Virus record (IMG/VR): IMGVR_UViG_3300046011_007348
Span: 8,024-72,023 of that record
Reading direction: 5' to 3' (one strand)
Length of the DNA: 64,000 nucleotides
Source: a virus
Taxonomy: Duplodnaviria; Caudoviricetes
Shown: piece after piece, positions 1,201-63,987 of the stretch
Position numbering within the stretch: position 1 is the first letter of the stretch
Layout: the number at the start of each line of letters is the position of its first letter
Notes under the pieces: generated by a model
Seen by the model: only the letters and a program-made list of their open reading frames with translations
Told to the model about the DNA's origin: nothing
Databases searched by the model: none
Translations under genes and position numbers: made by a program

Positions 1201-1205
1201 TTCCA

Positions 1206-6337: not shown

Positions 6338-6462
6338 GGAAAGCCCTGTTGAAGAGAAGGGCATAGAGAGGGATAAAATTATTGTACCAAAAATTTTCTA
6401 TATTACAGTTTTGCGTATATGTAACATATAATTAAAATTATATTATTTAATAACATTTTTGT

Positions 6463-7734: not shown

Positions 7735-7897
7735 TTTTATTCCAACTGAACAATCAAATTTAGAGCCGTTAGAAACATTGCTAAGACGTGCTTTAATCTT
7801 CCCTGAAGATGTTGACAAATACATTGAAGATTGGGACGAAAATAATCCAGATTATGCCGGATTACTCAATGCTGAAATTTTACCAGAGGAGACATAA
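7724..7897 (+). CDS. Small acidic hypothetical protein (head module)
   Basis: ATG 7724 overlaps portal end; stop overlaps next start. Confidence 0.55.
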   Translation: METNFIPTEQSNLEPLETLLRRALIFPEDVDKYIEDWDENNPDYAGLLNAEILPEET

Positions 7898-9265: not shown

Positions 9266-9565
9266 TTCCTCTAATTCTTCACTAGAGATTAGTTGATAAG
9301 TCACAGGCATGATAATCTGTGGTAATATCAAATCTCCTACATCTTCCTGTGTTGGAACTGGGAAGATGTAAAAATCTTTGAACTCTTTAATCTCCGCCCA
9401 TGTTGTAGTCTTGGCAGCATTTATATCCGGCTCTCCTGTCTCTGCATTTACAGATATTATGCCTTCCTGCGTGACTAATTCTGGTGGAAACATAGATGCT
9501 AAAGTGACATTAATATAATCTAATGCCGTCTGTGCGTCTTCTTTGTTTGTGAATTTGTAATACAT
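9170..9565 (-). CDS. Hypothetical protein, possible tail-fibre chaperone
   Basis: Last gene of the minus-strand fibre operon. Confidence 0.5.
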   Translation of the reverse strand: MYYKFTNKEDAQTALDYINVTLASMFPPELVTQEGIISVNAETGEPDINAAKTTTWAEIKEFKDFYIFPVPTQEDVGDLILPQIIMPVTYQLISSEELEELSNDFSFEQIAANNQGQFDSIEHSIPNSVIS

Positions 9566-9566
9566 A

Positions 9567-11288: not shown

Positions 11289-11297
11289 TGGTTTCTC

Positions 11298-16057: not shown

Positions 16058-18039
16058 TATTGAACTCCAAATACAAGACTACAAGATGCTGTTGTGCTAC
16101 TTGTTGAAAGACTTCTTGCTATAACAAGCAAGATGTCTCCAGGAACATTGTTAGCTACGCCTTCAGCGCGTCCTAACAACTCTCTTTGGGGATCGAAAAT
16201 TTCTGTTAAGTCAAATTCAGTGCCTTCGTTTGCACCACAGTAAAAAGCTCCAATTACTTTAGTCGCTCCATTAATACTAGGATATCCGTTCAATGTTTGA
16301 ATTGTACTAGAATTCCAGTATGGTGGGTTAATAATTGCTACCGCATCTAATGACACAGCTGCGTTTTGAGCTGTTAATATATTTGAACCTTCTGGTGTTA
16401 AATAACTATTAAGCCAACTACCAGCCGCTTTAACTAAATAAAATTCTGTATTTTGCGTTGAACTAATATATAACTTATATGGGTATGCTCTAGATTTCTG
16501 AGGACGAGATTGACTTATATCGTTGTTCCATATATATGGACGCATGACTATAGCAAGCATTGGTAAGTAGTTAGTGTTGGCAATACTAACGCTAGTTGCT
16601 GAACCTGTTTTAACAATTGCTGGGCGAGGATCTCCTCCATCAATCCAAATAGATACGCCGAATCTTCTTAGTAATCCTGGGATTGTTGAACTAGTAAATC
16701 CGCCGAGAGAAAAATCAGATTGGAAACTGTTACTAGAATTAATTTGTTTTCCGTACAAATAAGTTACAGGCATATCTGGATTAGACATACTTGGAACTGG
16801 CAAAGTATCTCCCACTCTTATTTCATGTCCGGTAACCCATCTTGTTGCTCCATTAAAAGGCACGTTTCTATCAGGAATGTAAGCTAATCCTTTACCACCA
16901 GATCCGCCGTACCAGCTTCTTTGTATAAGAAACATGCATAAATTAGAGCGCTCATTGATATAAATTGTTCCATTTAATGCTCCTCCTGTTATTGCTTGGT
17001 TTATAGTAATAGCTGTAATATTTCCCGAAGTAATTGTTACTGCTGTAATTCTTGTGTCTGCCGGGATATTAGTACCACGCACTGTCATTCCTATTGCTAA
17101 AGGGGCGGAAGTACTAGGGACAGGACTACCAAAATTTATTGCCGAGCTATTATTATTACCTGTGCAACTAGCTATCTCATAGCTGTCAGTAATAAAACTA
17201 ATTTGCTTAGCAGAGTTGCCAGCTGTTCCATCTATTTGTGGACTGCCTTCTTGATTTCTTCCTGTGTATTTATCTCTGTTAAAATTACTGCCTACCATAG
17301 AAGTGTAAGCTATTTCTTCCCAGGTGTTACTTCCTATGTAGTTGGTGTTGGTTCCATTCCCAACTAAATATTCTGGGCGAAACATTAAGCTATTCCCGAC
17401 TTGAACTCCTTGGCTAGTATTTCCTTGTTCATAAAAATCTTTTTTTACTTGGTTAGAAGCAGTCCCTGGTGGTACAGCAGAAGTGCGTCTAAAAAACAAT
17501 AAATAATTACGCCATATTCTTAAATTACCAGTGGCATCACCTCTTTTTGTTAGAACTCGCCAACCATAGCCATCGAATTTAGTAAATTCTCCCCACTGGA
17601 CAAAGCAATTATGAATAGCAGGCCCAATAGCACATTGAATAGCTTGTGATACTGAAATTTGTTTACCAGGCTGATATTTATAGGCGAATTTAGTTTGATG
17701 TGTTGAAAAATCATTTGTTCCTAAACTTAATTGTACACAGCTTCTATTTGGATCGTATGTAAAAGTGCCTGTGCTTTCCCAAACAGATGAGTCTATACCA
17801 TAGCTTGGTAATTCTTGTAATAAAAATTGTCTTTGTTCTGTGATTGGAAAACCAAACATTGATGATTTAACATCGCTGACTATAGATGTTGCATCTTGAA
17901 TATTTAATGATGCTTGATCTGATGCTAAAACTACAGAAATTGAGTTAGCAGCTGTTTGTCTCCCTGGTTGGATAGGAACACTTCTAGACACAGATACTGC
18001 ATTATCTGTTTGTTCTCCGGTTATTATAATATCACTCAT
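16057..18039 (-). CDS. Putative virion structural / tail protein
   Basis: MFGFPITEQRQ, YKYQPGK, WYGGSG, PSMSNPDMPV motifs resemble cyanophage structural proteins. Confidence 0.55.
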   Translation of the reverse strand: MSDIIITGEQTDNAVSVSRSVPIQPGRQTAANSISVVLASDQASLNIQDATSIVSDVKSSMFGFPITEQRQFLLQELPSYGIDSSVWESTGTFTYDPNRSCVQLSLGTNDFSTHQTKFAYKYQPGKQISVSQAIQCAIGPAIHNCFVQWGEFTKFDGYGWRVLTKRGDATGNLRIWRNYLLFFRRTSAVPPGTASNQVKKDFYEQGNTSQGVQVGNSLMFRPEYLVGNGTNTNYIGSNTWEEIAYTSMVGSNFNRDKYTGRNQEGSPQIDGTAGNSAKQISFITDSYEIASCTGNNNSSAINFGSPVPSTSAPLAIGMTVRGTNIPADTRITAVTITSGNITAITINQAITGGALNGTIYINERSNLCMFLIQRSWYGGSGGKGLAYIPDRNVPFNGATRWVTGHEIRVGDTLPVPSMSNPDMPVTYLYGKQINSSNSFQSDFSLGGFTSSTIPGLLRRFGVSIWIDGGDPRPAIVKTGSATSVSIANTNYLPMLAIVMRPYIWNNDISQSRPQKSRAYPYKLYISSTQNTEFYLVKAAGSWLNSYLTPEGSNILTAQNAAVSLDAVAIINPPYWNSSTIQTLNGYPSINGATKVIGAFYCGANEGTEFDLTEIFDPQRELLGRAEGVANNVPGDILLVIARSLSTSSTTASCSLVFGVQ

Positions 18040-19163
18040 TGTAAATCACTCCAACTATCTGTAAATGTACAATTCCCTTCCATAACTCTAACAGTGTCTC
18101 CGTTATTCAATCTAACTAATATTTCATATCCATATTCTCCATCCATATCGTAAAATTCAGCGCTGTTTACGTATAATTCTAAACTAATTGTGTTGAATGG
18201 TATTACTCCAACCATGAATTTGGAATAAGGAGGGATGATAACATTACCTTCGGGTGCCAAAAGTTTTACTGTTGGTGTAGTTAATGCAGTAGGAGGGATT
18301 CCTACAAAATTTTCCTTGAAAGCTACTGCTCCTACATATTTCCATTCTTTATCAACATTAGAATAAGATTGAACATACAATCTTGTATTTGCAGTCATTG
18401 CGGGTAAACCTAAATACCAGCCTTGGATGCTTACATCTACTCCTGTTGTATTAGTTGAGTTAATCGCTATATCCGCACTTCCGTTGTTTAAGTAACCATG
18501 ACTATTTGTAACATAACAGTTGTAGCCATTAAGAGTGCCAGCGACAACTGTTTCTCTAATTTCAATACTTGTTTGTCCAGCATTTACAGTGTTTGCTACT
18601 GTAACTCCTGTTACTAATGTACCACTTGTAAAAGCAAGTATACTGCCAGCGGGGATTTGTTGAGTTACGCCTGTTACATTTAATGTATTTGATGTATTGC
18701 TAGTTACATTTACAGTAAAGCTGCTTGCTACATTAGCATGAAACGCAGCCACTGATGCAGAACGATTAAATATTCTAGCTTCACTAACTGTTTTAGTTGC
18801 ATTAGAACTTAAAACAAGAGTAGAGTCAGTAACAGCGTCTACTTTAGCAATTGCAACAGCGCCTTCAATAATTACTTTATCCCCAACTCTAACAGGCAGT
18901 AAAGACAATATTTTACTTTTGTCAGCTGTAGCAGGATATGCTTTAATTTGTACATTTGGGGTGTTAATTGTAGTAGATGCAGTAAATCGTTTAACTAAAC
19001 TAAATCCCGGAGATTTACGTCGAACTTCTCCAAATACCAAAGCATTTGCAAAGTTCATGCCATAACTACCTGTTACAGTTAAATTAAATCTAGCTGTCTC
19101 ACCTTTTTTAAGTAATAAATCTAATTTTTGTGTATTAAACTGAGGTTTAAATGGTTCAGTCAT
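18036..19163 (-). CDS. Putative baseplate-upper / fibre adaptor protein
   Basis: BppU-like termini (LLLKKGET...GEVRR; YGYEILV...VRVMEG) with inserted beta domains. Confidence 0.45.
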   Translation of the reverse strand: MTEPFKPQFNTQKLDLLLKKGETARFNLTVTGSYGMNFANALVFGEVRRKSPGFSLVKRFTASTTINTPNVQIKAYPATADKSKILSLLPVRVGDKVIIEGAVAIAKVDAVTDSTLVLSSNATKTVSEARIFNRSASVAAFHANVASSFTVNVTSNTSNTLNVTGVTQQIPAGSILAFTSGTLVTGVTVANTVNAGQTSIEIRETVVAGTLNGYNCYVTNSHGYLNNGSADIAINSTNTTGVDVSIQGWYLGLPAMTANTRLYVQSYSNVDKEWKYVGAVAFKENFVGIPPTALTTPTVKLLAPEGNVIIPPYSKFMVGVIPFNTISLELYVNSAEFYDMDGEYGYEILVRLNNGDTVRVMEGNCTFTDSWSDLQ

Positions 19164-19362
19164 AATCTAATTCCAATAAATAAGACGGACTAATTTCCAA
19201 TACTTTAGCTATTTTTTTAATTAAGCAAGCACGTTTAATTCCATTACTTTCCGCCCTAACGAGAGTCATGCGGCTAACTCCAATACAATTTGCTAGTTGT
19301 TGGCAACTAAAACCTTTTTCAATTCTACATTTTTTTAAATAGCTTCCCTGCCTTTTGGACAT
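19156..19362 (-). CDS. XRE-family HTH regulator
   Basis: LKKCRIEKGFSCQQLANCIGVSRMTLVRAE...IAKVLEIS. Confidence 0.9.
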   Translation of the reverse strand: MSKRQGSYLKKCRIEKGFSCQQLANCIGVSRMTLVRAESNGIKRACLIKKIAKVLEISPSYLLELDYD

Positions 19363-19424
19363 AATTTAATACCATAAAAGATACAGCTACAATAATTATT
19401 GCCATTATAATTAGCGAGAATAGT

Positions 19425-19453
19425 TTAAGCTAAAAACAAGTGTTTTAGCTTAA
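19425..19453. promoter_or_regulatory. Inverted repeat immediately upstream of major capsid ATG
   Basis: TTAAGCTAAAA-N7-TTTTAGCTTAA. Confidence 0.5.
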
Positions 19454-19457
19454 TTGT

Positions 19458-21206
19458 ATGTCACGGAAATTTATAAAAGAATTATCAGAACAGCAAGTCA
19501 TAGATTCAATTAATCAAGCAAAAAGAGAAAAAATGTCAGACAAACCAAAAGGATTTGCTATTGCCAACTCCGTCAAGATTCAAGACAGCGTATCAGTAGA
19601 ATCTACTACAGATGTTTCAGCTCCTGCACCTACTCCTGCTCCTGAGCATGATGCGCCCAAGCCTTTGTCTTTAGACGACGTTGAACGTGTTTTATCTGTT
19701 CATTTAGATAAAATGCAATCTTCTTTAGAAGCGGAAAAACAAGCTAAAGCAGAATTAGAAGCTGCTTTACAAAAAGAACGTGCTGAAAAGGACGCTCTTA
19801 AGTCTCAACTAGATACAGCGAGATTAGCTGAAAAAGTATTAAATGATATTGGTAGAATGCAAGGAAAAACTGAAAACGTTTCTGTTCCTAATGTTAATAG
19901 AGTAATAACATCTAAAGCAGATGCGCCACAAGGTGCTTTAAAAGATTGGTTTAACATTTTTGATGACTGCTCCAAAGTTATCAAAGTACGCGCCAATGGC
20001 TCCCAGTATGTTACTCAAGACAACAGGCAGTTGAATCAATTTGTTAAAGAAAACAAAGCAGCTGTTATTAAAGACTTAGAGTCTTGGGCAAAAGCCAATG
20101 GTATGTTGCGTGGTTCTTCTACCATTTCCAAGGATGCTGCAACAGTTGGTGGAGACATCCAAGGCGGATTTTTGTCTGTTTTGTCATCGATTATGCGTAC
20201 CAACAATCGTCAAGGATTTATCTTTTGGCAATTTGCTAATACTGTAATTGATTTTGGTAAAGGATTGGGAGACAACATTAAGATTCCTAGAGCGGCTTAT
20301 TTACCTGCTCCTAACGCTCCTGAGGACAGATTATTGTCAAGTGCTGGTGCGTATACTCGTATTGACTCTGGTAATCAAAATTTATCCACTGGAGTTGTAA
20401 CAGCTCAGTTAAGTGAATGGGGTTTAGGACGTAATTCCCAATATCCTCCTGTTACTTTAGTTAGCTTTGTAACTGCCTATTCAATGATTGAATTGTTGTC
20501 AATTTTGAATAGAAACTTAATGCGAGATTACTACGCATGGGAAGATTTGCAGATTAGAAGCTTGTGGACTGGCACAACTCGTGTTGTTTACAATGATAAA
20601 AACGCTGTTACCACTGCGATTGGTGATGTTGCTACTGCTGGAGATGATGGAACTTTATCTCGCAAATTCTTAGCGTCTCTGTATGGTTACATGAAAGAGC
20701 TACAGATTCCTCCATTTGCTGGTAACAAGTATGGCTTGGTAGTTAACAGCACAGCTTTGACTCAATTAAAAATTAGCTATGACACTTTGTGGCATGCTGC
20801 TAGTCCTAGCGAATTGCAAGCCTTGACAGAGTTCTTAAATCCTGTTCTAATCTCTCCTGGTGAGACAGATAAGCTAACTGGATATTGTGGAGATTTTGAG
20901 AACTTCATGATTTTCGAGACTAATGCTTATGGTGTTGGTGGTAGCGGCGCTCCCGGCGTTCAAACAGAAAGCAGCAAAGTCACTCACACTAGCTTTGCTT
21001 TTGGTTCTGACACAATCGGACGTGGCATCGGCACTGAAATGGAAGTTCGCTTTGATGATGACACTGATTTTGGACGTGCTACTAGAACTATCTGGCGCTC
21101 TGAAGAAGGATTTGTTCAAATGGATGTTGATGGTGCAGGAGACAGTAGTGCTGTCCCACAACAACTTAGAGTTATCAAAGTTAACACACTCAAAACCGCA
21201 GTTTAA
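19458..21206 (+). CDS. Major capsid protein with N-terminal scaffold/coiled-coil extension
   Basis: N-terminal ~200 aa P-rich then coiled coil; GLGDNIKIP, DDTDFGR capsid-like motifs; precedes adaptor genes. Confidence 0.8.
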   Translation: MSRKFIKELSEQQVIDSINQAKREKMSDKPKGFAIANSVKIQDSVSVESTTDVSAPAPTPAPEHDAPKPLSLDDVERVLSVHLDKMQSSLEAEKQAKAELEAALQKERAEKDALKSQLDTARLAEKVLNDIGRMQGKTENVSVPNVNRVITSKADAPQGALKDWFNIFDDCSKVIKVRANGSQYVTQDNRQLNQFVKENKAAVIKDLESWAKANGMLRGSSTISKDAATVGGDIQGGFLSVLSSIMRTNNRQGFIFWQFANTVIDFGKGLGDNIKIPRAAYLPAPNAPEDRLLSSAGAYTRIDSGNQNLSTGVVTAQLSEWGLGRNSQYPPVTLVSFVTAYSMIELLSILNRNLMRDYYAWEDLQIRSLWTGTTRVVYNDKNAVTTAIGDVATAGDDGTLSRKFLASLYGYMKELQIPPFAGNKYGLVVNSTALTQLKISYDTLWHAASPSELQALTEFLNPVLISPGETDKLTGYCGDFENFMIFETNAYGVGGSGAPGVQTESSKVTHTSFAFGSDTIGRGIGTEMEVRFDDDTDFGRATRTIWRSEEGFVQMDVDGAGDSSAVPQQLRVIKVNTLKTAV

Positions 21207-21864: not shown

Positions 21865-22578
21865 ATGCCGTGGCTCTCTAATCAAGACTGTATTAGTTAT
21901 GCTCCCAGCATTACTTTGACTGGAGAGCCATTGACTACTGCAATAACTTTAGCTCAAAGTTTAGTGGAAGGAGTTAATGGCTCTAACCGTCCATTAGCTC
22001 TAACAGAATTTACTAAAATTTTGTCTATACCAAATACTGGAAGAGTGATTGTGCCAATACGTCCACTACTTCCTTCTCCTGCTCCTGTAATAGAATTAAG
22101 AGGGAGTGATACTCCGCCTCGCTTTGGTGTTTATTCTTTACAAGAATGGGAATTACTTACTTTAGATAAAGATTATATTATTGATTACGATAACAATGAA
22201 GTTGGCTTATTGTCTCTTAGTCGAGTGTTAAGACATGAATATTTTTATCACACTGGATTTAGGAGATATAGTCGCAGTCCAACAGTTCCTAGACTAAAAA
22301 AACAACTTAAAATTACTTATTATTCTGGTTTTAATTTTACAACTAACACAGAGGAAGTTGTAATACTAAAACGTGCTTTAGCTAGTATTGTGGCTATGAG
22401 AATTTCTCCTCAATCACAGGGAGTAAAATCTGTAGATGTTTCTGACGAGAAGTACAAAGTAGAGTATGCATCACAGTCAGATTATCTTGGAATAAGTGGC
22501 AACAAAACTAGTGGTAGCCCAATAAATGAGTTATTATCAATATTTAGAAAATATCGCCCAAGTGAGTACACGTCATGA
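21865..22578 (+). CDS. Head-tail adaptor protein
   Basis: LKITYYSGF...GVKSVDV...ELLSIFRKYR pattern of gp6/gp15-like connectors. Confidence 0.7.
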   Translation: MPWLSNQDCISYAPSITLTGEPLTTAITLAQSLVEGVNGSNRPLALTEFTKILSIPNTGRVIVPIRPLLPSPAPVIELRGSDTPPRFGVYSLQEWELLTLDKDYIIDYDNNEVGLLSLSRVLRHEYFYHTGFRRYSRSPTVPRLKKQLKITYYSGFNFTTNTEEVVILKRALASIVAMRISPQSQGVKSVDVSDEKYKVEYASQSDYLGISGNKTSGSPINELLSIFRKYRPSEYTS

Positions 22579-23015
22579 ATATTGAGCAACTTGTCAGTGG
22601 CGCGTTAGAACATTTGCCCGATAATTATTTTAGTACAGTTAATTTAGAGTTAAAATTCAACGTTGGCAGTGGTAGTTTTACAGTAGATCCAGAGACTGGG
22701 AATTATGTTCAATCATCTACTCCTACTACACTATTAGTTTCTGCAACTGAATACAAAGATCCAAAAGTGCTGCAAATGCCTGGCAGCTACAGTACTAGCT
22801 TAATCCAAGTCGAAGGACGGCTGAGTAATCCAAAATTGATGCCAACTACAATCACTGTTCAATCTGTTGGTACAGCTAAACTAACTAATAACGATGGTTC
22901 TATATTTCAAGGAACTTGGAAGTTCATAGCTATTACACAGAACAGAATAAATGCTTACACAACTAAAAGAGGTACGTTAATACGAGGTACTATAACGCTG
23001 CCAACAGCAGTCTAA
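22575..23015 (+). CDS. Putative head closure protein
   Basis: Position after adaptor; beta-rich. Confidence 0.5.
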   Translation: MNIEQLVSGALEHLPDNYFSTVNLELKFNVGSGSFTVDPETGNYVQSSTPTTLLVSATEYKDPKVLQMPGSYSTSLIQVEGRLSNPKLMPTTITVQSVGTAKLTNNDGSIFQGTWKFIAITQNRINAYTTKRGTLIRGTITLPTAV

Positions 23016-23034
23016 ATAATTTTTCAGAAAACTA

Positions 23035-23063
23035 TTGACAGGGATAAAATAGGATGCTATATT
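23035..23063 (+). promoter_or_regulatory. Sigma70-type promoter
   Basis: TTGACA-N17-TATATT. Confidence 0.65.
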
Positions 23064-23069
23064 AATTTT

Positions 23070-23210
23070 ATTCGATAAGCAATAGGCAAATTCTATGTTT
23101 GATTACGATTATCCCGAACGGGATAAAAAAGACAAACAGTAAGCTCTAACTTACTAACTTGCAATAGCTACACCACAACACAAATGGGGCCTCCGCAAGG
23201 AGGTTTTTTT
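23070..23210 (+). ncRNA. Candidate ~140-nt small RNA (or 15-aa ORF 23095-23142)
   Basis: Bounded by promoter and terminator; internal inverted repeat TTATCCCG-AA-CGGGATAA at 23109-23126. Confidence 0.4.
23189..23210 (+). terminator. Intrinsic terminator
   Basis: GCCTCC-GCAA-GGAGGT followed by T-tract. Confidence 0.85.
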
Positions 23211-23213
23211 ATT

Positions 23214-23432
23214 ATGTCAAACGTAGATCACCCACAGCATTACACAGCAAGTTCAGTTGAATGCATTGATGCAATTGCAGCAGCTTTATCTCCGGAAGAG
23301 CTAAGAGGATTCATCAAAGGCAATGTCATCAAATACTTATGGAGAAGCGAACACAAGAATGGTAATGAAGATTTACAGAAAGCTTTATGGTACTTAAATT
23401 GGTATGTCAATAAAATCAAAAATCCATCATAG
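23214..23432 (+). CDS. DUF3310-family protein
   Basis: VDHPQHY...ECIDAI...GNVIKYLWR...KNG.EDLQKALWYL. Confidence 0.9.
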   Translation: MSNVDHPQHYTASSVECIDAIAAALSPEELRGFIKGNVIKYLWRSEHKNGNEDLQKALWYLNWYVNKIKNPS

Positions 23433-24375
23433 AGTTTTTGTGTAATTTTCCATTTACCACCTTATATTGCTTTAGCCAGTTATAGGCAGTAGATTGGCAA
23501 ACACCTAAATAGAGTTTGCACCATGCGAATGATTTGCCATTAGAAAGTGCGTTTAAGACTGTTATCTTGACATTGTCATCGTAAGAAGGCCTGCCAATTT
23601 GTAATGGATTTTCAACAAACTGACTTTGGCAACTTTTGCATAAATATTGCTGCCTATTTCCTCTTTTCCCGTTCTTGACAACATTTTTGCTTAAACAGCT
23701 AGGACAAACAACAATATCGTTGACTACATTTTTAAGTAGTTCTATACCTTCAGATTCTAGTTGTTTAATTTGGTATACTGACAAATTTAATAATGACTTA
23801 ATATCTTGTATTTTATAATCTTCAATATAAATTAATCTAAGTATTTGTGCGTGCTTGCTTGGAATTTTAGCTAGTATTATCTCTAATTCATCGATAGTAG
23901 AGTTATCAAAGTAACTGATTTCAGGAAGTTCTATGTGAATTTTATCATGAGCTATCGCAGCTTCTTTGGCGGTTAATTCTGAAATAGTCAAGTCCCTAGC
24001 TGATTGTTCATAAGTAATGCCTTTCTTTTTAGCATTACGCATTATTTTCTGATAAATGTCTTGGATATTCCTAGGGATTTTAACTAATCTGTCCTTGTCC
24101 CGCAGGAACATTAGCATATATCCATTTATAAAAGGAACAGCAAAGCTGGACAACTTTTTAGACTTTTCAGGATTATATCTTTCAATAGCTTGAATTAATC
24201 CTAGACACCCAATTTGTACTAAATCCTCTAATGGAACAGAGCAAGACTTCTGGACTTTTTGAGCAACAGAGTAGACAAGTCCTAAATTCTTTTCTACAAT
24301 CTTATTTCTTATTTTTATGTCTTTACTCTCGTAGTATTTGATTAGCAGCTGTTGGTTAACATCAAAATTCATCAC
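23416..24375 (-). CDS. SigF/SigB-like sigma-70 factor fused to IS1 InsA-like Zn-ribbon + HTH
   Basis: RNKIVEKNLGLV, EDLVQIGCLGLIQAIERYNP, SSFAVPFI..FLRD..VKIPR; C-terminal CPSC..VVKNG..QQYLCKSC..F followed by HTH (LGVCQSTAYNW). Confidence 0.88.
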   Translation of the reverse strand: MMNFDVNQQLLIKYYESKDIKIRNKIVEKNLGLVYSVAQKVQKSCSVPLEDLVQIGCLGLIQAIERYNPEKSKKLSSFAVPFINGYMLMFLRDKDRLVKIPRNIQDIYQKIMRNAKKKGITYEQSARDLTISELTAKEAAIAHDKIHIELPEISYFDNSTIDELEIILAKIPSKHAQILRLIYIEDYKIQDIKSLLNLSVYQIKQLESEGIELLKNVVNDIVVCPSCLSKNVVKNGKRGNRQQYLCKSCQSQFVENPLQIGRPSYDDNVKITVLNALSNGKSFAWCKLYLGVCQSTAYNWLKQYKVVNGKLHKNSMMDF

Positions 24376-24446
24376 ATTAACACAAATGTTACATATTTAT
24401 GTTACTTTAAAAATGGCAACTTTATAGGTAAACTATTCAGGAAACT

Positions 24447-24854
24447 ATGAAAGCTATTTGGAATAAAAATATTAATATTTCTCCTAAGACTGCTACTTAT
24501 ACTTGGAGTGCAAATTACGCTCCTATTGTTCATGAAGGCGGTACGAGAAAGGATGGAAGTGATTTACCTGCTCGTCCCTGGGTTTGGAGAACCGTAGGAT
24601 TAAATGGACAGGAAAGACGTTATGATATTGTACAGGATTTCAATGATAAAATACGTACAGCAAATAGTTTCGATGAATTGTTTGAGGACATTGCAACTGA
24701 ACTTAATAGTGAATTTAGGAAGACTATAGAAGCTGAAATATTTGCATGGGATGCAACGACAAAAAGGAAAAATAGCTCTACAGTTACGTCTCCAAGAAAT
24801 ATTGTTGATTTAGGAAATTTAAGAAACTCTCAATCTATGTCTATACAGCCATGA
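24447..24854 (+). CDS. HK97 gp10-like neck/tail completion protein (motif order permuted)
   Basis: YAPIVHEG..PARPW and SPRNIVDLGNLRNS motifs. Confidence 0.65.
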   Translation: MKAIWNKNINISPKTATYTWSANYAPIVHEGGTRKDGSDLPARPWVWRTVGLNGQERRYDIVQDFNDKIRTANSFDELFEDIATELNSEFRKTIEAEIFAWDATTKRKNSSTVTSPRNIVDLGNLRNSQSMSIQP

Positions 24855-25225
24855 ATGTAGCTGAATTAAACACACAACTAAGAACGCTATTAAGCACAGA
24901 GTTAGGAGTATACAGCAACGGTACTCCTAGTATTTGGGTGTATGGTTCAACAAGCAGTCCACCATCTGTAAGTAATGGATTGGAGTGCTTAATACGTCAG
25001 AATCCGATTGGATATGCCGGCGGATCTAGTGCTGGGCAAAGATATAAACCGCAGCAGTGGGAGATAATTCTTAAGAATTGGAAGCGAGATTCTAATTTAA
25101 TAAAAGCAATATCTAAAATAGAGCAACGTTATTGTGTTATGTCTTTGACACACATACCATTTAGCAATGAATTTATAGAACAGGCAACTATTTTTATTAA
25201 AGATCCAATTTTTATTAACACTTAG
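24851..25225 (+). CDS. Putative tail terminator
   Basis: Size and position before tail tube genes. Confidence 0.5.
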   Translation: MNVAELNTQLRTLLSTELGVYSNGTPSIWVYGSTSSPPSVSNGLECLIRQNPIGYAGGSSAGQRYKPQQWEIILKNWKRDSNLIKAISKIEQRYCVMSLTHIPFSNEFIEQATIFIKDPIFINT

Positions 25226-45899: not shown

Positions 45900-46478
45900 A
45901 TGATTAAAAACGATAAGTGGATTCTAGAAGAATGTAAAAAAGGGATGATTCAACCATATGAAACACAACTTGTTAAATACAACAATGGCAAGCGAATTAG
46001 TTATGGATTATCTTCTTATGGTTATGATATTAGTTTGTCTGACACAGAATTCTGGGTGTTTAGAAATGATAACAATACTGTTGTCAACCCCAAGAATTTT
46101 ATTAGAACAAATCTAGAATCTGTGCCTTTGCAAAAAGATGAATATGGAGAGTTTTTTGTAATTCCAGCCCACTCTTATGGATTGGGAGTTGCACTAGAGA
46201 AAATTACAATGCCTGACAATGTAACTGCTGTTTGTGTTGGTAAAAGCACTTATGCCAGAGTTGGATTGATTGCTAACATCACTCCTGTTGAAGCTGGATG
46301 GAGTGGACATTTAACATTAGAATTTAGCAATTCTTCCGGTGCTGACTGCCGAATTTATGCAAATGAGGGAATAGCACAATTACTGTTTTTTGAAGGTGAG
46401 ACTTGCTCTACAAGCTATAGTCAAAGACAAGGCAAGTATCAAGATCAGCCTGAGAAAGTGGTATTCGCTAAAGTCTAA
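45900..46478 (+). CDS. dcd: dCTP deaminase
   Basis: ISYGLSSYGYD, GKSTYARVG..NITPVE, IYANEGIAQLLFF, GKYQDQ. Confidence 0.96.
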   Translation: MIKNDKWILEECKKGMIQPYETQLVKYNNGKRISYGLSSYGYDISLSDTEFWVFRNDNNTVVNPKNFIRTNLESVPLQKDEYGEFFVIPAHSYGLGVALEKITMPDNVTAVCVGKSTYARVGLIANITPVEAGWSGHLTLEFSNSSGADCRIYANEGIAQLLFFEGETCSTSYSQRQGKYQDQPEKVVFAKV

Positions 46479-59100: not shown

Positions 59101-60527
59101 ACTTTTTTAAAGTCCTGATATACTAAAGGAATAGTGCTATAGTCACCTATGCTTGCATTAGAATCTATAACATTTTTTATTGTTTTATTATATTTGCTTT
59201 GTGCTGTTTTAATTTTTCTAGATTGAGCTATAATATCTTCTAGAGACTTTGATTCAGTCTGAGGTTGATCAATTTTTTGGGCAGATTGCTTAGACGTTTT
59301 TATAGCTTCTTCCAATACGCTATCTATTTCTTGCCCTACTTCTATAACAGACTCAATAGCTTCTTTTACTTTTTGAGGTATTTCATTAAAAATAGATAAC
59401 TTTTTAAGCTCTTCTCTAGCAGTCCTATCAATCTCTTCAATAGGTACAGTTTCAGATTGTGGCTTAGGTTTTTTGGGCTTTTGAGGAAGTGGATCAAGTG
59501 GTATTGGCTGAGCGGGATTATCGCTAGTTTTTGTTTTTTGCTTTGCCATTGCAGACTGAACAATGCCTGCCATTTTCAGTCCAGTATTTATAGCCAGTCC
59601 GGTTGCAATAGACTGGAAAGCTTGCCCAGGTGTAGAAAAGGTTTCTTGAGGTGTTTTGGTGTCACAAGGGGGAATACACGTTTTGTTATTCTGTGTTGGG
59701 GGAGTATCTTGCTTAGTTTTACTTATGGGCTTTACATTTACTCCCATCATTTTAGAAAATGAATTTCCCATTTTCTGTCCCATGTTTTCCATGTTTAGCC
59801 CCATAGTTTCACCCAAGGACTTTCTGAAACCAGAGGACAATTCTTTACCAAAATCATTGGTAAATCCCTCAAAAAAACCTGTCAATAAGTCTTGCCCTGG
59901 CTTTAAAACAACCTCTATTGCCTTTGATGCTACTTCAGCTTTGGAATCATCAGCAGCGCCAGAAAATCCATCCTTGACTTCTTTAACAAGATCTTCAATA
60001 CTTCTACCTGTCCCTGGAGAAGCTGATGAATCTGTCTTAACATCTGCTTTGGAAGCTCCACTAGAAACAGATTTTTCTACAATTTTTTCTATTAAATCGC
60101 CAGATTGTTCTATCCCTCTCTGCATCCCCGCTTTAAAACCCCTTTCTACTGCGGATGCTACCTGATCTTCTATGTCGTTTTCATTACTTAAACTTTTATA
60201 TTTATATTCAATTTCAATGGTATGTTTTTTAGTGGTTTTATGCAGTAATTCATTCAAATCCGTCAGAAGCGAATCATCCACAGAAACCGTAACAGGATTT
60301 TGCTTAAAAAACTCATTTACCTTTTTTAAATGCTTGACTTTAGAATCTAAATGCTTATTTAAATTAGTTAGCTCAGAATCATCAACACCAATTGACAAAT
60401 TAGATGAAAAAGCAGATTCCATCTGCTTTACAGCATCTAAGGCACCCTTTTTTGCCGCAGCAAGATTTCTGTTAAATTCATCTGTGTCTAGGGATAATTC
60501 AACTATTAACTCACCTAAGTTAGCCAT
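47166..60527 (-). CDS. Giant tape measure protein with M23 and M15B/VanY peptidase domains
   Basis: MANLGELIVELSLD start; tape-measure motif SKGKISMEELRQQLGERFP; HAGRD..HLHFE; SGFRS..APPGYSEHHTG..EPWHW; FASGG-type C-terminus. Confidence 0.92.
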   Translation of the reverse strand: MANLGELIVELSLDTDEFNRNLAAAKKGALDAVKQMESAFSSNLSIGVDDSELTNLNKHLDSKVKHLKKVNEFFKQNPVTVSVDDSLLTDLNELLHKTTKKHTIEIEYKYKSLSNENDIEDQVASAVERGFKAGMQRGIEQSGDLIEKIVEKSVSSGASKADVKTDSSASPGTGRSIEDLVKEVKDGFSGAADDSKAEVASKAIEVVLKPGQDLLTGFFEGFTNDFGKELSSGFRKSLGETMGLNMENMGQKMGNSFSKMMGVNVKPISKTKQDTPPTQNNKTCIPPCDTKTPQETFSTPGQAFQSIATGLAINTGLKMAGIVQSAMAKQKTKTSDNPAQPIPLDPLPQKPKKPKPQSETVPIEEIDRTAREELKKLSIFNEIPQKVKEAIESVIEVGQEIDSVLEEAIKTSKQSAQKIDQPQTESKSLEDIIAQSRKIKTAQSKYNKTIKNVIDSNASIGDYSTIPLVYQDFKKVSSDSRKAVEKLMAEAKSLNATPQQINEIAQAKSPISAGEKSVKQEVSKSYLKVKKEADLIAKANQEGIQTNSSAFKTLGEEEAKKYIVAFKKILGISSPSKVFISIGAAIAAGLAIGLVTNKINVKKAADEVISTVKDTTEQGAESLDSLIENAVDDKNKAYATKVKQVFKNSRKGSKGSNELSQDIGSFLIANSKILSTVLPALGRKPTSVEQNIPMSHLGKFYRGNTDVIKFNDKNSLSPIIDAVSVFLADKGKQQSGYGYLGAFDSESKFANSSKKLEFDLLLKDLRSLQLTLGGFGVVKTKTGINAVDVYDWAGAKSKQKRSFPEGVTIPLPASINSKLISLLDKFPAIAKSLNLQKDDLGGYTRHTNLGKTRKQIETEAIARKEVLLESDGRHVNVTKSNLSAMSDKEFKRRTSGLISINPSGGIKVSDSLHDIIGGQSYVQQRQVPLKKERELKRLYSKIYKQLEKENKPINEETVFTHPDFLNYMYGDKAKQKSKSRFRQKSRSKPLQDEERLNNGVEEQLDNDMFSMLKNFDLKGVGNVLLSMISNQFLAVLPTGFKNIFSKIGQVIPKGILSIMPQGIFSKLGGNLLKGISGIIPQGLPKTFLKIGFNLVEGFLNGFSNFGSKSKVISESFFSLVKSVKKVLRISSPSLIMKGVGLDFGKGFEDGATASLVYSFHRISQEYKKFVDKEMNNPALTKYSKGMLARSKKKIDADLKDFAKSYKQGNFGSEAEAMDYLRSKVMKPNKDTMHYLGFSKKQQNQIAKAAKSDFDVLMNYDKNAPELRYQNILPLIRNSSKKVSTLLLASHKISEEYKKRIDELMNTPGISQSQKSLYAAQKNLIDKKLQKFVADVSSGRMTDKEIQQSILNAYKFSRKKAQSVNVGFGTVSSIVKESGSAVATSKQSVFKQLFDSIVDGFSSTSGQGVGIFSLGGYLRKAVGKSLQNMIEKNFMDTGRMNALSSLGLFKMAPKLFEMVTGGSANLTNLLPLLAPLLPGLIGDKAGKIGQFASNLLKNNNIFQPGGLLPSVIKSVTGIDLGREDKMGDKGGQAFGISKLFRLFIGSENPFFKTLSSIPFLAQAGRKVAGFASSVYGDKLPALGENVPRENLTQTLQNQIKTNISSIGIEGTGAKDLARQVLRTLFDSFTIKNPGNSNLLRGILEKNSKIVNSIRDFLINKIVDSGMLSATNGLGGRAVRIANAYASGNVEGAVNMTARTAQQLFKTSGLQNVAATMGIKIDTAQVKMAITALLLGISAFHKAFTQEGLNIGKAIIKGFNEAVANWKNVGSDVKREVRKALGAENPKEIWDQIVTQWKRGIVVPKNVFKDFWNAIGAQFKRDKMKNFAPDEREDIQKNMLSFIVSAASVFAPITTFATTLLPLVTPLLPLFGAIGGAVFMVRNQIQSLVKAMLELEPLQRRLNFLGGSKEGGKAELNYAMNTAKALNVPAKAATQAYSQIAIAARGTKLEGEGARDLFEGISASLGALGISGQDAELVFMAYTQMLSKGKISMEELRQQLGERFPPAMGIFAKALDISIPQLIEMSSAGSLLAEEVLPKVAKQLKIDYSGAAKGAEGFSISLTRLQNIGMEMSIKLVNAFGGLFSFVVDIFSNIASAINAILDDIIKIFSSFVIGVTATLGVGLVFLLKMNPVKTFLMNISGLLTAGIAALMGALGPFFLGILADVLDDFLGAQKTLMQNMYEGVSNGILWFLSSLDSVKRKITGKGLFDTIVGKPSENPFKSFIDGIGNITKVIPSGVIELLALVLMFEQLITLTKHFGMPMFKGLLQGLNGIRVSLVGMKNEAISPKGIQSLFTNTFDLSAQVESKQRSPIGTRLQDEIAYAFYSAKTTIATQMKGLWASFTGFFKQLPATIGASAIFGGFIDGISATKAAFAGFMANITAGFKAGFWQGIGASFVGLFQLVGNGFKGLKAALNFAWTQGVVGGLNAIGASLTSLGKTITSVGIIKAFTLLFSSDGMLASSARAAWGQALSQMLAGLMKSLKSLAKIGIEAGIALAFMFLARSDFSNPMQKSISEMARSVNGALGSISNSLAKVDEASKVNQKSSKELAKGYKNVADSIPSKGLQLDIFYVFGMKEEGYTTDDFVKNVNKALRGEIDKNSLGLMEYNKYEEIVAQREGENRRRGLDKNINTGFGGEYATDKISPKQKAILKKYDIKGLVSDTDYDITLGVKQVIDNLDYFDSVLQSSKKEFGNLGLTKETQNKYKARVKDVADRLKQIDIEVLGLSVEKSKATQQNTPESKKRAADLSKQIVQRLALRKELAKDVEANANSANVLLEEAKKLEDAAKTVPAPVRGAYLQIAKEMKDFAQEAKQIIEKSVPVNPLEQVYKDTLSALNRFQAAYDRFSANIDRSTALREERIYSSGANPGDVDYATRRSGIISQEQRVSGLSRLFTMRKAALDLLSTIPDSNLNTEAKDKITELRKQTQDDATSLATARSSLAKSRYDLKESLRQQQKQVDDYVRSVTKEIDQGRLEIKKANQEIQNANFKTKINEALTGLGDTEFTRYIDGLVSIIEQLNQTALSQIDTERTSLDFKNRIKDSQIEARELIRTLPSGKDIIGVTEDIESDMKQAFTQSSKELEALINAVRASAAKVTQQTQQTVKESGEANKNTEKLNENMVKANESVSNMNVSLQQTVDLLERSAGIKIDPYSNATPAPSTPTNNSSTSSNSSNSNGVQGVFSSLFSFFGASQNPPSSVSSFVHPHPNRGRTVPGGHFGDPRPGRRHAGRDFAGQIGEPIVSSLPGIVKIAKTQGAYGKVIYIEHTTPDNKKLETRYAHLSEMLVRVGDVVQAGQQIGKLGNTGVGTGPHLHFEIRVNGRAIDPTPFITGQTPISAVVPSASARAGSASNTTSSNNESKYGHLAYNEAPLKELSPITTDGKIKLRQIAAEKFEYMARRAKEEGVVLVPISGFRSIQQQRQLFFGVAAQRNQTPEQRAKVSAPPGYSEHHTGYAVDIGDKAAPGTNLNSTFEKTKAFSWLQSNAARFGFELSFPQNNRQGIDYEPWHWRFVGDSDSMKTFQRARSYNPETANTGAANTGSTSPSAGVNTGAIADSQKQREEILKQQDEANKKRAEALRKQNEASVIRNLDNFFKNTKKTIRESRDSTNSLVRSFSDILNEYSPDKLPDPLTPESIKLTDTLNKLNDTRQDIQERLNSLRQSFVKGTDGKLTDTLALFNPLRKGLEQITDVKQREKYLDRLNKDEQRLASRFKVDIATLDTTLKSIDVQKKEIEERIKLTKAMSRLRREYENRSKIRDSDNVLRQAELDISQKGREIGEYSGGKIKFQEQVDPKFSIKRVGTIDFTTPEQQKGYLEEIFQKQKTEGQRLDKEVLRLQEIYPKAIQMTDSDIKQYNIDVDKLHSDIPKFNQSIKENAKLVDELKGLRLIEELKKPTANPNEPRFNNLTELMKPRSKFGFGGMDEYKLEGNTYFPVTQDSQIQNSFAEGLMPFNQMQLLNIRSVPELQFEERKLQIEDALSQYELNTKELVAKGLLTSVDAEARIEKYREITRIKRIQNQSQLEIDKANETKTEVDRRFERRDLMNSVDYNFSKSEFASRRYEIEKATALREAQINASVLLNEEQRTDLVRKNQEMQTKLMTDLTKDIKQTVIAMKQETAQTRLNIYRDKGGNQFQINAEQRRMDEERLKKEKQDELDKAKKEKEGGDIDDKEYEERTKEIEEKYKAKLEESKNAAKDVVSTIRQMVRDSLINDLSAGLTDVIMGVQKLDDVLNNLAKNMLNGLINIAIKSLMQSLVGAGGILDSLFKSIGGIFGGNSGGEVPSANDGGEVSSQYKGGVIKNYAGGGIIQSLNEAIVREKAANGGITPVVAVLTPGERVLSVADNAKFQSMGLDKAIKNNNIESVMNYAMGGNVSNSELKVRNIMNFASGGVIPPSPGLGNINQPTTNTTVNVPITIESQDGDKSPSIDPNAMQSAIKTAVIVEIQRQQRQGGILKR

Positions 60528-60560
60528 AATTTTACCAATTATATATATACAATGTTGCCA

Positions 60561-60589
60561 AAATAAAAGCTGTTTATTAATAAACAGCT
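60561..60589 (-). terminator. Terminator after thymidylate synthase-like gene
   Basis: Perfect 22-bp palindrome AGCTGTTTATTAATAAACAGCT (60568-60589) followed by TTTATTT on minus strand. Confidence 0.6.
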
Positions 60590-60603
60590 AATGGCATAAT
60601 AAG

Positions 60604-62007
60604 TTAAAACTGGCAATAAACAGCCCCTGACGCTAGCGCCACTTCCGCTTTATGTAGTTCAATGCCAAGATAGGCCGCATGTTCTGCTAATATGCTGGGA
60701 TTATCTGCAAGTATCTTGTCACACAGTTTAGATGAAGACTTGCCTGAGTATTTTTTTACCTCTTCCCCACACTTGGTAAATTGAGTGACAACTATTATGC
60801 CATCATCAATTTGTATAACAAAATTGCCAACAGCATCTCTAAAAGCTTTTTTGTCATACAAAGACTGATAATGAGACAAAACAATATCGTCAGCAGCATT
60901 CCAACAGTCTTCATAAATATGCGCACTTTGACTAATAACTGTTAACGCACCTATGTCTAAGTTTGGGTAAGTACTTGATAACTTGTTAAAAATGTAATAT
61001 TGCAATGAGCGCAGTCCCATAGCGTTAGACACCCAAGCAGAAAACATATCATTGCTTCTAAGTGTAGCTGTCATGCATAACTCATTGTTGTAAATTTTCA
61101 CCCAAATATGATTCAAGCAAGGTGGTGACTGAGAAAAAATATCAGTAGTAGCGTCCCAAAGATTAATCACTAATCTGTTAGAGATTTGACTTGTTTTAAG
61201 CATGTTAATAACATTTTCAGTCTGATTAACACCAAAATACTCATTAATCCTAGTTCCATAGCTGTTGCTATTATCACCAATGCATAATATTTGCTGCACA
61301 TATTTGTTTACAAACTCTTTGTTTGTGGGTAAATAGTTTGGTTCTGGGAATATTAATTCTTCTGGCTCATCAGTGATAATTGTCATTAAATTCAATATTT
61401 CTTGCCAATAAATACCACTAGAACTTATGCTTATTTTGCCTGTATTTCTAATTCTATGAAGAATTTTAACCCAAGCCTGGTGGATGTAATTTGCCTCTAT
61501 TCTGTGTCCATTTAACTCTCCCGGACATATTATTGTTGTTGCTTTCTGCTCTGGGAAAGTCATTGGATTACTCCAAGGATTCAACTCTATCTTGAAAACA
61601 GCATCAACAAAATTTTTGAGTCTATAAATATCTTCAAAAGCATAGGCATGGACATTGTTCCTGACTCTGTTGAGAACATCTTCTGGTATCTCAATGTCTA
61701 TGTAACCAAATCGATTAGATTTGATTACCCAGGCATCTCTCCCCGTATTGGTTTTACCAGCAGTAAATCCAAAAGTAAAAAAGTCTAGTAAGCACTCTAC
61801 TGAACCAGCGTTTTTATCAAACTCAGAACAATTAAGTAACAGCAAGTATCTGATGTTAGGATTAGCCAGTAGATTACGGATTAATATATTTATGCCTGGC
61901 GTGCATGAATACAATTGCTTCATCACATAGTAAGAATCAGCCGGAATATGTTTTGCGAGTTTAGCCACTGGTGTCCAACCAGTGGCAATAGCTATAGTTT
62001 TGTTCAT
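60604..62007 (-). CDS. Thymidylate synthase-like protein with N-terminal MtrA-like and C-terminal DUF4346-like domains
   Basis: SPPCL, LRSNDMFSAWVSN, SAHIYE; RNLLANPNIR; DAVGNF..HAAYLGIELHKAE. Confidence 0.85.
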   Translation of the reverse strand: MNKTIAIATGWTPVAKLAKHIPADSYYVMKQLYSCTPGINILIRNLLANPNIRYLLLLNCSEFDKNAGSVECLLDFFTFGFTAGKTNTGRDAWVIKSNRFGYIDIEIPEDVLNRVRNNVHAYAFEDIYRLKNFVDAVFKIELNPWSNPMTFPEQKATTIICPGELNGHRIEANYIHQAWVKILHRIRNTGKISISSSGIYWQEILNLMTIITDEPEELIFPEPNYLPTNKEFVNKYVQQILCIGDNSNSYGTRINEYFGVNQTENVINMLKTSQISNRLVINLWDATTDIFSQSPPCLNHIWVKIYNNELCMTATLRSNDMFSAWVSNAMGLRSLQYYIFNKLSSTYPNLDIGALTVISQSAHIYEDCWNAADDIVLSHYQSLYDKKAFRDAVGNFVIQIDDGIIVVTQFTKCGEEVKKYSGKSSSKLCDKILADNPSILAEHAAYLGIELHKAEVALASGAVYCQF

Positions 62008-62633
62008 GCTGTTATGTTATGGATTGGCATTACACATCTAGACTGATTATCAACTAAAGCAGTGGGGCATCTCCACCCCCATTCTCTGCACTTATAATCA
62101 TACTTAAAGATTCTAGTGTCTTTCTCTAAGTAAACGTATGGAACTGGTTTACACAACTTGTCATCTTTCCATAAATGATAATCATTTTCAACTTCTTGAA
62201 TTAGCCAGGATTTAACGCCAGAATAAGCAAACGTTTTATATTTACCAATGGATTGCATTGTTTGTAGAATGTCTTCTACTTCTTGGATATTTCCCCTGCA
62301 ATACCATGTCAGACAAGATGTCACTCTCCATGGCTTGACGTTTGAAGCACTGGGAAATTCTTTAATCTCTTTAGCTTTAATCTCGTAAAAAGGACTACTT
62401 GTTTTGTAGTACCAGCTACTCTTGCTTTCAGATAAATATCCTATCTCAATAGGCATTTTTTCTTTAATAATAGCGATGCTAGTTTTTATATCGTCTTGAC
62501 TAGGATTTTGCTTTAAAATCCCGCAATTATACATAATCTGATAAGCTATCAATCCATCTAGCGCTGGAGTCCAATTATCGTTTAAAGCTATTACTTTTGA
62601 CAAAAAGGCAACTATTTTTATGTTAGAGTACAT
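62004..62633 (-). CDS. csf3: Orphan type IV CRISPR Csf3 (Cas5)-like RAMP protein, degenerate
   Basis: IKIVAFL..WTPALDGL..WYYKTSSP..TWYCRGN..IGKYK...V.SW..HLW..L.KPVP..WGWRCP..CVMP matches the recalled Csf3 pattern. Confidence 0.7.
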   Translation of the reverse strand: MYSNIKIVAFLSKVIALNDNWTPALDGLIAYQIMYNCGILKQNPSQDDIKTSIAIIKEKMPIEIGYLSESKSSWYYKTSSPFYEIKAKEIKEFPSASNVKPWRVTSCLTWYCRGNIQEVEDILQTMQSIGKYKTFAYSGVKSWLIQEVENDYHLWKDDKLCKPVPYVYLEKDTRIFKYDYKCREWGWRCPTALVDNQSRCVMPIHNITA

Positions 62634-62656
62634 GTCTAGTCCTGTAATTTTAACTA

Positions 62657-63310
62657 ATGGATAGCAACTATCAAGAAATTTTAGAAGCAGCTCAGTATTG
62701 CTCTAAAGTCTATGACGCTATGACTATTATAAGCAATACCACAGATACAGAAGTGCTTGTAGCTGACAATCCACAAAAACTAATTATATCGTTTAGCGGA
62801 AGTGAATCAGTAGTTGACTGGAAACAAAATTTGGACTTTAAGCTAGTAAACTATTATAAACAAGCAAAAGTTCATTCTGGTTTTTTAGAGTGTTTTGAGT
62901 CTGTCAAACATCAAGTATTTGAGTTGTTGACAGACAAACCTATCTGTTGCGTAGGACATAGTTTAGGCGGTGCTATAGCCACAATCATGGCAACTTACAT
63001 TAAGTCTGTTTATCCGCAACGGCTTGTAACAAGCGTAACTTTTGGAAGTCCTAAGCCAGGAAATCAAGAATTTGCTGAATTATATCAATCCCTAAATATT
63101 CCAACATACAGAATTGTCAACTCCATTGATATAGTTCCTTCACTTCCGAGGTGGTGGCAAGGACAATACAAGCATGTTTGTGAGCCTAAATATATTGGCA
63201 CCAACATCAATAAATCTCAACAATTACTTAATGCTGATAAAATTAAGAGCCACTACATATCTAGTTACGTAGCGACTCTTAATGAATTAGTTCAAACTAA
63301 TAAGATATAA
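62657..63310 (+). CDS. Lipase class 3 family protein
   Basis: ISFSGS, VHSGF, GHSLGG, TFGSP, DIVPSLP, C-terminal His. Confidence 0.93.
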   Translation: MDSNYQEILEAAQYCSKVYDAMTIISNTTDTEVLVADNPQKLIISFSGSESVVDWKQNLDFKLVNYYKQAKVHSGFLECFESVKHQVFELLTDKPICCVGHSLGGAIATIMATYIKSVYPQRLVTSVTFGSPKPGNQEFAELYQSLNIPTYRIVNSIDIVPSLPRWWQGQYKHVCEPKYIGTNINKSQQLLNADKIKSHYISSYVATLNELVQTNKI

Positions 63311-63815
63311 ACGGTATTGGGTTTATTAACTTTTCCACCGATTCTTTCATTTTTCTGTACTCTCTATACTGCTGAGAGTTTGGCTGACTAGAGTACAAAT
63401 TAACCAATCTTTGCAGGTGCGGCACAGCATCTTTGTATCGTTTCTTAACTGTGTAGTGCTGAGCTACAAGCAGATTTCCCACCTCTGAGTTTTTATCAAC
63501 AAACAGTGTCATAAATGCATCTGCTATAGACAAGTTGTAATACCCGCCAACTTGGTAAGCTAATGCTCTAGCTTCTAATAATCTCGGATGAGTTGGGGAG
63601 ATTTTCAACGCAGCTGACAAGTCAGCAATAGCATTTTCAGTTAATCCCATTTGGCTATAAAGCATTCCCCTACCCAGAAGACTAGTTACGTCTTTTGGAT
63701 TTTTTTTAATCAGTATTGTGTACTGATTAATTAACTCAATGTTTCTAGGCTGCTGTGCTGCTACAGGATTTAGTAGCATTGCTGATAAAACAGCAGTTAA
63801 AAATATTTTTTTCAT
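63297..63815 (-). CDS. Secreted TPR protein
   Basis: Signal peptide MKKIFLTAVLSAMLLNPVAA; TPR consensus (RGMLY..G..AIADLSAALKISP). Confidence 0.8.
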   Translation of the reverse strand: MKKIFLTAVLSAMLLNPVAAQQPRNIELINQYTILIKKNPKDVTSLLGRGMLYSQMGLTENAIADLSAALKISPTHPRLLEARALAYQVGGYYNLSIADAFMTLFVDKNSEVGNLLVAQHYTVKKRYKDAVPHLQRLVNLYSSQPNSQQYREYRKMKESVEKLINPIPFISY

Positions 63816-63879
63816 GATTCAGTAAAAATCGTCATAAATATTGTAACACGAGATTCTAGCACACAAACTCAACATCAGG

Positions 63880-63987
63880 ATGGTATACAAAACCGAGATA
63901 GAGGCAAGGTATGTGTTGCCACATGGAGTAACAATGCAATCACCAGAGTTTGAGAGCTGGTGTAGAGAGTGGAGAGTTTTGCTGTAA
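63880..63987 (+). CDS. Possible 35-aa ORF
   Basis: MVYKTEIEARYVLPHGV...; short, no family evidence. Confidence 0.3.
   Translation: MVYKTEIEARYVLPHGVTMQSPEFESWCREWRVLL

Follow-up and report, generated by a model that had tools for sequence, protein, structure and literature searches.

The question raised by this locus is why a lake cyanophage should keep a gene for one subunit of a CRISPR effector, Csf3, the Cas5 of type IV systems, with no csf operon beside it. The gene, an open reading frame (ORF) called csf3-like here, lies in a stretch of 64,000 nucleotides (the window) that makes up the last 64 kb of IMG/VR record IMGVR_UViG_3300046011_007348 (Caudoviricetes; 72,023 bases, linear, viral, CheckV completeness estimate 52%). 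Among the cultured phages of the collection searched, Cylindrospermopsis phage Cr-LKS4 and the C. raciborskii virus RM-2018a came closest to it. The gene product is very probably a functional, solo Csf3 that lacks a thumb. To our knowledge, type IV-B is the least understood CRISPR-Cas variant, with no array, no nuclease and no known function.

Identity was established with profiles. Five PADLOC typeIV_Cas5 models matched the csf3-like protein (best E = 5.6e-22) in two stretches, profile positions 3-76 and 122-218, which jointly span the profile except its middle. An exhaustive phmmer search yielded 112 relatives at E <= 0.001, and each of the 38 taken into an alignment was also recognised by typeIV_Cas5. 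When the Protein Data Bank (PDB) was searched with a profile built from 98 relatives, it returned the Csf3 chains 7xfz_B (E = 7.9e-23) and 8rc3_F (E = 6.2e-21). AlphaFold2 (AF2) with the 98-row alignment gave a predicted local distance difference test score (pLDDT) of 94.1 and a predicted template modelling score (pTM) of 0.90; the run on the single sequence was useless (pLDDT 32) and was replaced by the one with the alignment. The Cas5 palm of solved Csf3, a fold of the repeat-associated mysterious protein (RAMP) type, is present in the protein, so the RAMP-like character given to the ORF by a first-pass annotation of the same DNA now has its fold match. Queries with the single protein or ORF returned little: Pfam named no family (best match Olfactory_mark, chance level, E = 0.096), PHROGs gave an unnamed family only, phmmer against the PDB gave only a chance match to dihydrofolate reductase (E = 1.2), and no related loci were retrieved from viral contigs, where an 8-row alignment of closer kin found them. 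Judged from these profile matches, the Csf3 likeness of the 209-residue protein is far beyond chance. Sequence identity to Csf3 of the solved type IV-A effectors (PDB 8RC3_F, 7XG1_B / 7XFZ_B, 8RC2_F) is 13-16%. In contrast to these, the window protein lacks the thumb with its basic loop, its glycine-rich loop is altered, and no csf1, csf2, cas6, dinG or array stands beside its gene.

The altered parts were mapped by alignment with full-length Csf3. Full-length relatives carry a basic segment between an SSPxY motif and the strand that opens the second half of the protein (consensus RKRW..(10)..WGKRKAK...K.YDLP). About 30 residues of this central basic thumb are gone in the window protein and its close kin, and the span between two shared anchors is 17 residues in the short clade against 51 in 7xfz_B. 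The stump is the region of lowest AF2 confidence, with block 91-100 at pLDDT 70. In the glycine-rich loop, G130 is invariant and K131 is retained, and A136 and S138 stand in place of the two later glycines, which full-length kin conserve to at least 80%. Both changes had been called by the first-pass annotation, the deleted central basic hairpin correctly and the altered loop to the letter. Conservation was counted over the positions at least 80% identical in 27 full-length Csf3 of the sister clade (n = 32). Of these, 23 are retained in the thumbless clade; the nine changed positions comprise five in the deleted thumb, three glycines (two in the glycine-rich loop and one further upstream) and one V-to-I replacement. 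The losses thus concentrate on the elements expected to touch nucleic acid, with the other conserved core retained. According to PMC11519345, the Cas5 thumb traverses the duplex of CRISPR RNA and target and contacts DNA, and in type IV-A3 mutation of the thumb arginines R102, R104, R105 and R110 abolishes interference. Because 23 of the 32 positions are kept and the non-conservative losses all fall in nucleic-acid-contacting parts, the pattern suggests that the old protein contacts are still selected.

Selection on the gene was estimated by the Nei-Gojobori method from unsaturated pairs. The ratio of nonsynonymous to synonymous substitution rates (dN/dS) was 0.09 between the window (G000) and contig L021, 0.057 between L025 and L027, and 0.17 between the sister phage G001 and the relative G002, about the same as that of the adjoining thymidylate synthase gene. 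The ORF is intact and conserved in length in every locus examined. The csf3-like gene is under purifying selection.

Companion genes were searched for with profiles and tblastn, with G001 as positive control. The 72-kb record, window included, yielded no csf1, csf2 or cysH-like gene, and the window holds no family of CRISPR-like direct repeats; here the first-pass annotation, which had listed none of these genes and no array in the window, was right. Of the type IV-B gene set (csf1, csf2, csf3, cas11 and a cysH-like gene, without array), the window holds the csf3-like gene only. CRISPR-like direct repeats were also not found in G001 1-20000 or around g60 of Cr-LKS4; the repeats that turned up are coding (pentapeptide, tetratricopeptide (TPR) and low-complexity). 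Since the contig is incomplete and ends 1.4 kb from the csf3-like gene, that side was covered only through overlapping contigs of the same lineage. Contig L020, 99.4% identical over 9,989 bases, extends 4.1 kb past the window end and encodes there only pentapeptide-repeat and TPR proteins, with no csf1, csf2 or cysH. At the other (left) end of the record, contig L061 (97.8-99.0% DNA identity) adds 4.0 kb, again with no csf1, csf2 or cysH. The same three genes were absent from the 36-kb relative G002 and from the complete 101-kb Cr-LKS4 genome. A syntenic site was located by matching L061 1-218 and 1777-2146 to G001 9669-9886 and 14951-15320; the interval is 5.1 kb in G001, where it holds a IV-B operon, and 1.6 kb in L061, where it is empty of one. 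The csf3-like gene is therefore without a csf operon across a composite of about 80 kb of the lineage, which takes in all but a few kb between L020 and L061; this is precisely where the phages are mosaic, so that even a near-identical contig does not prove what the genome itself contains. The rest of the genome, where the first-pass annotation had pointed for csf1 and csf2, thus yielded neither in the record or in its lineage extensions. The suspicion of a nearby IV-B locus was reasonable, because the sister phage carries both the thumbless gene and such a locus.

Descent was followed by maximum likelihood in a 105-row tree (quick search; support from the Shimodaira-Hasegawa-like approximate likelihood ratio test, SH-aLRT, only). 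Eleven thumbless rows and four Cr-LKS4-type rows form one clade (SH-aLRT 99) within a 43-row clade (SH-aLRT 100), the remainder of which is full-length Csf3. Identity between the branches of the thumbless clade is 38%. Full-length Csf3 of three groups was used to query viral contigs, and in all 27 loci retrieved (24 distinct contigs; L034-L060) csf2, cas11, cysH-like or csf1 adjoins csf3. Nesting among full-length Csf3 whose loci are IV-B operons indicates that the thumbless lineage descends from a phage type IV-B Csf3. The closest full-length relatives are of this operon type (e.g. L004 13496-14194, cluster P0016; also P0013, P0015 and P0020). They have 228-232 residues and a full thumb, also occur on lake viral contigs, and always stand with csf2, cas11, cysH or csf1, whereas the window protein, 27-35% identical to them, stands alone. 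Viral contigs of 70-90 kb from lakes commonly carry complete, array-less IV-B operons (cas11, csf2, csf3, cysH-like, csf1).

A solo structural homologue of Csf3 is already in print for the cyanophages CrV-01T (ORF 58) and Cr-LKS4 (g60) (PMC12481020). Proteins of that branch are longer (235-242 residues) and keep the beginning of the thumb, RK(Y)W, losing only its remainder. Unlike the window gene, their genes do not adjoin a thymidylate synthase gene, and Cr-LKS4-type loci have different neighbours, among them a conserved upstream ORF of unknown fold. The CrV-01T homologue was tied to a CRISPR array (PMC12481020), whereas none was found in this window. A second precedent is AcrIB3, described in a preprint (bioRxiv 10.1101/2023.06.24.545427) as a Cas5 homologue from Listeria mobile elements that inhibits type I-B; the same study counts 358 orphan viral cas genes, type IV included, in IMG/VR. 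AcrIB3 and the window protein have in common that each is a Cas5 homologue of a mobile element or virus, encoded outside a cas operon, in a clade of its own apart from true Cas5. They differ in that AcrIB3 derives from a type I-B Cas5, to which it is 38% identical, and its activity was shown experimentally, whereas the window protein is type IV-derived. The window gene lies in a viral record, outside any cas operon or array, and in its own clade (SH-aLRT 99), as would be expected of a Cas-derived anti-CRISPR of the AcrIB3 kind. The literature search gave no account of a thumbless Csf3 or of one coupled to thyA, and the listed matches joining Csf3 and thymidylate synthase concern the human CSF3 gene; the orphan-cas list of Katz et al. 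(Table S3) may include members of the clade. New here is a thumbless, thyA-coupled, phage IV-B-derived version of an orphan viral cas gene.

The sister phage G001 is complete (86,305 bases, inverted terminal repeats) and has the same block of lipase, thumbless csf3 and thyA. Its IV-B operon lies about 1.5 kb past thyA and about 3 kb from the thumbless csf3. The thumbless gene is not the nearest relative of the csf3 co-resident in this phage. Gene and operon also co-occur in L023, and the protein clusters of both genes list further contigs of 81,469 and 91,878 bases. Between G000 and G002, proteins of the FtsK / dCTP-deaminase flank are 98-99% identical, and those of the thyA / csf3-like / lipase / TPR block only 44-65% (window 60604-63815 vs G002 22240-25215). 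By this comparison the block is an accessory module that is swapped and diverges fast. In G001 it is inverted and lies near the genome end. A thumbless csf3 / thyA pair, 55% and 61% identical to that of the window, is also present in L009 (NBNH01000360.1, 2.8 kb), which is filed under a metagenome-assembled genome (MAG) of Actinomycetales and has the look of a piece of phage DNA that was binned with a bacterium.

The gene downstream matches Pfam Thymidylat_synt (E = 1.4e-11) and PterinBD-DUF4346 (E = 2.1e-17). This is the cyanobacterial type of enzyme, with an archaeal-like ThyA core and a C-terminal pterin-binding DUF4346, and chromosomal thymidylate synthases of Nostocales, Crocosphaera and other cyanobacteria share about 46% identity with the window ThyA over 97-100% of its length. 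A hypermodification enzyme was considered for this gene and rejected, since the gene is of the ordinary cyanobacterial thymidylate synthase type. The ATGA coupling of the two genes, noted in the first-pass annotation, was confirmed by reading the overlap. Downstream sequence is available for 12 loci of the thumbless clade, and in each of them thyA begins 4 or 8 nt ahead of the csf3-like stop codon. The overlap is kept in the L025-L027 branch, where Csf3-like and ThyA proteins are 38% and 48% identical to those of the window and the flanks are different. A promoter-like match before the pair and a terminator-like one after it enclose no other gene, which is consistent with a two-gene transcription unit; the sigma-70-like match is weak, with 21 matches observed in the region and 15.3 expected. 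One freshwater metatranscriptome run (X20) contained two 151-nt contigs, both inside the csf3-like ORF (62002-62152 and 62232-62382), and none elsewhere in 60300-63900. With the contigs at depth 2 and DNA carry-over possible, this is a mere hint of csf3-like expression. Complex prediction for thumbless Csf3 with thymidylate synthase, run without controls, gave scores of 0.00 and 0.00 (mark 0.32) and speaks neither for nor against binding.

As to function, thumbless Csf3 may be a defective mimic of the Cas5-position subunit that acts on type IV (Csf) complexes, the likeliest of the readings considered, put forward tentatively. The protein would take the Cas5 position, at which an ordinary Csf3 binds the 5' end of the guide RNA and caps the Csf2 filament, in Csf complexes of rival phages, of host plasmids or of a co-resident IV-B operon, and complexes built with it would be unable to engage their nucleic acid. 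It would in this respect resemble AcrIB3, as an anti-CRISPR-like faulty subunit. Its Csf3 palm, RAMP core and nearly all family-wide conserved positions are retained, and the parts by which solved type IV complexes grip nucleic acid are lost. The repurposed Cas5 proposed by the first-pass annotation is upheld by the Csf3 fold, the loss of the thumb and part of the glycine-rich loop, purifying selection, and the missing csf operon over about 80 kb. The decoy of host Cascade that the first-pass annotation offered as a possibility would, given the descent from type IV, more plausibly be aimed at a type IV (Csf) complex than at host type I Cascade; since IV-B operons are frequent on phage contigs from lakes, its target could be the complex of a rival phage rather than a host system. 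As first gene of a cassette with thymidylate synthase, csf3-like is probably expressed with nucleotide-metabolism genes.

Several points weigh against the mimic. The curated NCBIfam model of Csf3, TIGR03116, scored 25.5 bits against a cut-off of 140 (E = 8.6e-06, residues 108-160 only), and identity to any full-length Csf3 is only 23-35%, below the 38% of AcrIB3 and Cas5. No known acr or aca gene lies beside csf3-like, where Pfam names thymidylate synthase, class-3 lipase and TPR, no dedicated acr/aca library having been searched. G001 carries the thumbless gene together with a full IV-B operon (csf3, cysH-like, csf1, cas11, csf2; L004 10491-14194), and a general Csf poison, unless specific, would harm that operon. 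The same co-residence, repeated in L023 and in the two contigs listed for both clusters, would suit an alternative or regulatory Cas5-position subunit of the phage's own IV-B complex that alters what the complex binds. This is unlikely, since the gene is kept without an operon in the window lineage, G002, L025-L027 and the Cr-LKS4 type (whose genome is complete), and its closest relative in the tree is not the co-resident csf3. A relic of a type IV-B locus elsewhere in the genome, as the first-pass annotation had offered, or any decaying and functionless remnant of a lost operon, would account for the missing thumb, the score far below the curated cut-off and the operon of the sister phage, but it is scarcely credible. 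The gene is intact and constrained, its product is modelled with confidence, its clade is deep, well supported and separate from operon Csf3, and the syntenic operon site is empty. A relic or pseudogene was rejected on dN/dS.

Two further explanations take the protein away from Csf complexes. It may have acquired a new stand-alone role in binding nucleic acid or protein outside CRISPR, in which the RAMP core would serve as scaffold after loss of the former partners; this would fit an old clade that mostly has no csf operon and a Cr-LKS4-type branch with neighbours of its own. Such a role is rather doubtful, because the retained positions and the restriction of non-conservative losses to nucleic-acid-contacting parts argue against it, and no alternative partner was identified. 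The mimic leaves the strict coupling to thyA in 12 of 12 loci unexplained, and that coupling, preserved in the divergent L025-L027 branch, together with the promoter-like and terminator-like matches around just the two genes, favours joint work with thymidylate synthase, whether as one of its subunits, by tethering it to nucleic acid or by regulating its synthesis through RNA binding. This too is unlikely. The same type of enzyme works in cyanobacterial chromosomes as a single-gene product (about 46% identical among the matches listed), the Cr-LKS4-type sister branch does not adjoin thyA, no Cylindrospermopsis phage record was among the 86 tblastn matches of the window ThyA, and gene overlaps are common in phage operons. 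In its strongest form, a Cas5 taken wholly out of CRISPR into nucleotide metabolism, forming a functional unit with the coupled thymidylate synthase, for example as RNA-binding regulator or tether, the proposal is quite improbable; if true, it would be the first case of a Cas effector subunit turned to metabolism, and a new kind of Cas exaptation.

Features of the window are listed in Table 1. The record also encodes DnaB, an ERF recombinase, a large terminase, tail tube proteins and an FtsK-like protein. The class-3 lipase and TPR genes beside the cassette overlap tail to tail, and both are kept in sister phages. At the tape-measure position, the homologue is 6256 residues long in G002 and split in G001 (3563 and 1002 residues). 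The 750-residue ribonucleoside-triphosphate reductase of Cr-LKS4 has as homologue an ORF of 1933-1943 residues at G000:C1:10-4011 (upstream of the window) and L061 3221-9052. Within this ORF, L061 exceeds G000 by about 1 kb (4833-5869), a difference that points to inserted inteins or homing endonucleases.

Table 1. Coordinates of features in the 64,000-nt window.
Feature	Position	Strand	Basis
csf3-like ORF, thumbless solo Csf3 (type IV Cas5) homologue, 209 residues	62004..62633	-	
Thymidylate synthase, 467 residues, second gene of cassette	60604..62007	-	Pfam and NCBIfam matches
ATGA overlap, csf3-like TGA stop / thymidylate synthase ATG start	62004..62007	-	Read from sequence
Stump in place of Cas5 thumb, residues 84-101, EIKAKEIKEFPSASNVKP	62331..62384	-	Alignment gaps vs full-length Csf3; anchor spacing
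Altered glycine-rich loop GKYKTFAYSGV, residues 130-140	62214..62246	-	Comparison with family consensus GKKRxxGYGxV
Sigma-70-like promoter match TTGATA-16-TAAAAT, 10/12, just upstream of csf3-like start codon	62647..62674	-	Consensus scan only
Terminator-like hairpin and T-run between thymidylate synthase stop and tape-measure start	60558..60589	-	Consensus scan only
Class-3 lipase	62657-63310	+	Pfam E = 6.5e-28
TPR protein	63297-63815	-	Pfam
Tape-measure position, single ORF of 4453 residues	47166-60527	-	
Phage-encoded sigma-70-family factor with C-terminal InsA-type zinc ribbon	23416-24375	-	
DNA polymerase III beta clamp	3685-4797	-	
dCTP deaminase-like protein	45900-46478	+	

The lineage represents an old phage clade in which purifying selection maintains a Cas5-position protein alone, without the parts that grip nucleic acid. 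Part of this can be tested with the cultured relative Cr-LKS4 on Raphidiopsis / Cylindrospermopsis raciborskii. Should the protein prove to be a mimic, type IV complexes would have their first natural inhibitor; it would add to the evidence that cas genes give rise to anti-CRISPRs, and it would provide a handle on what phage IV-B systems do.

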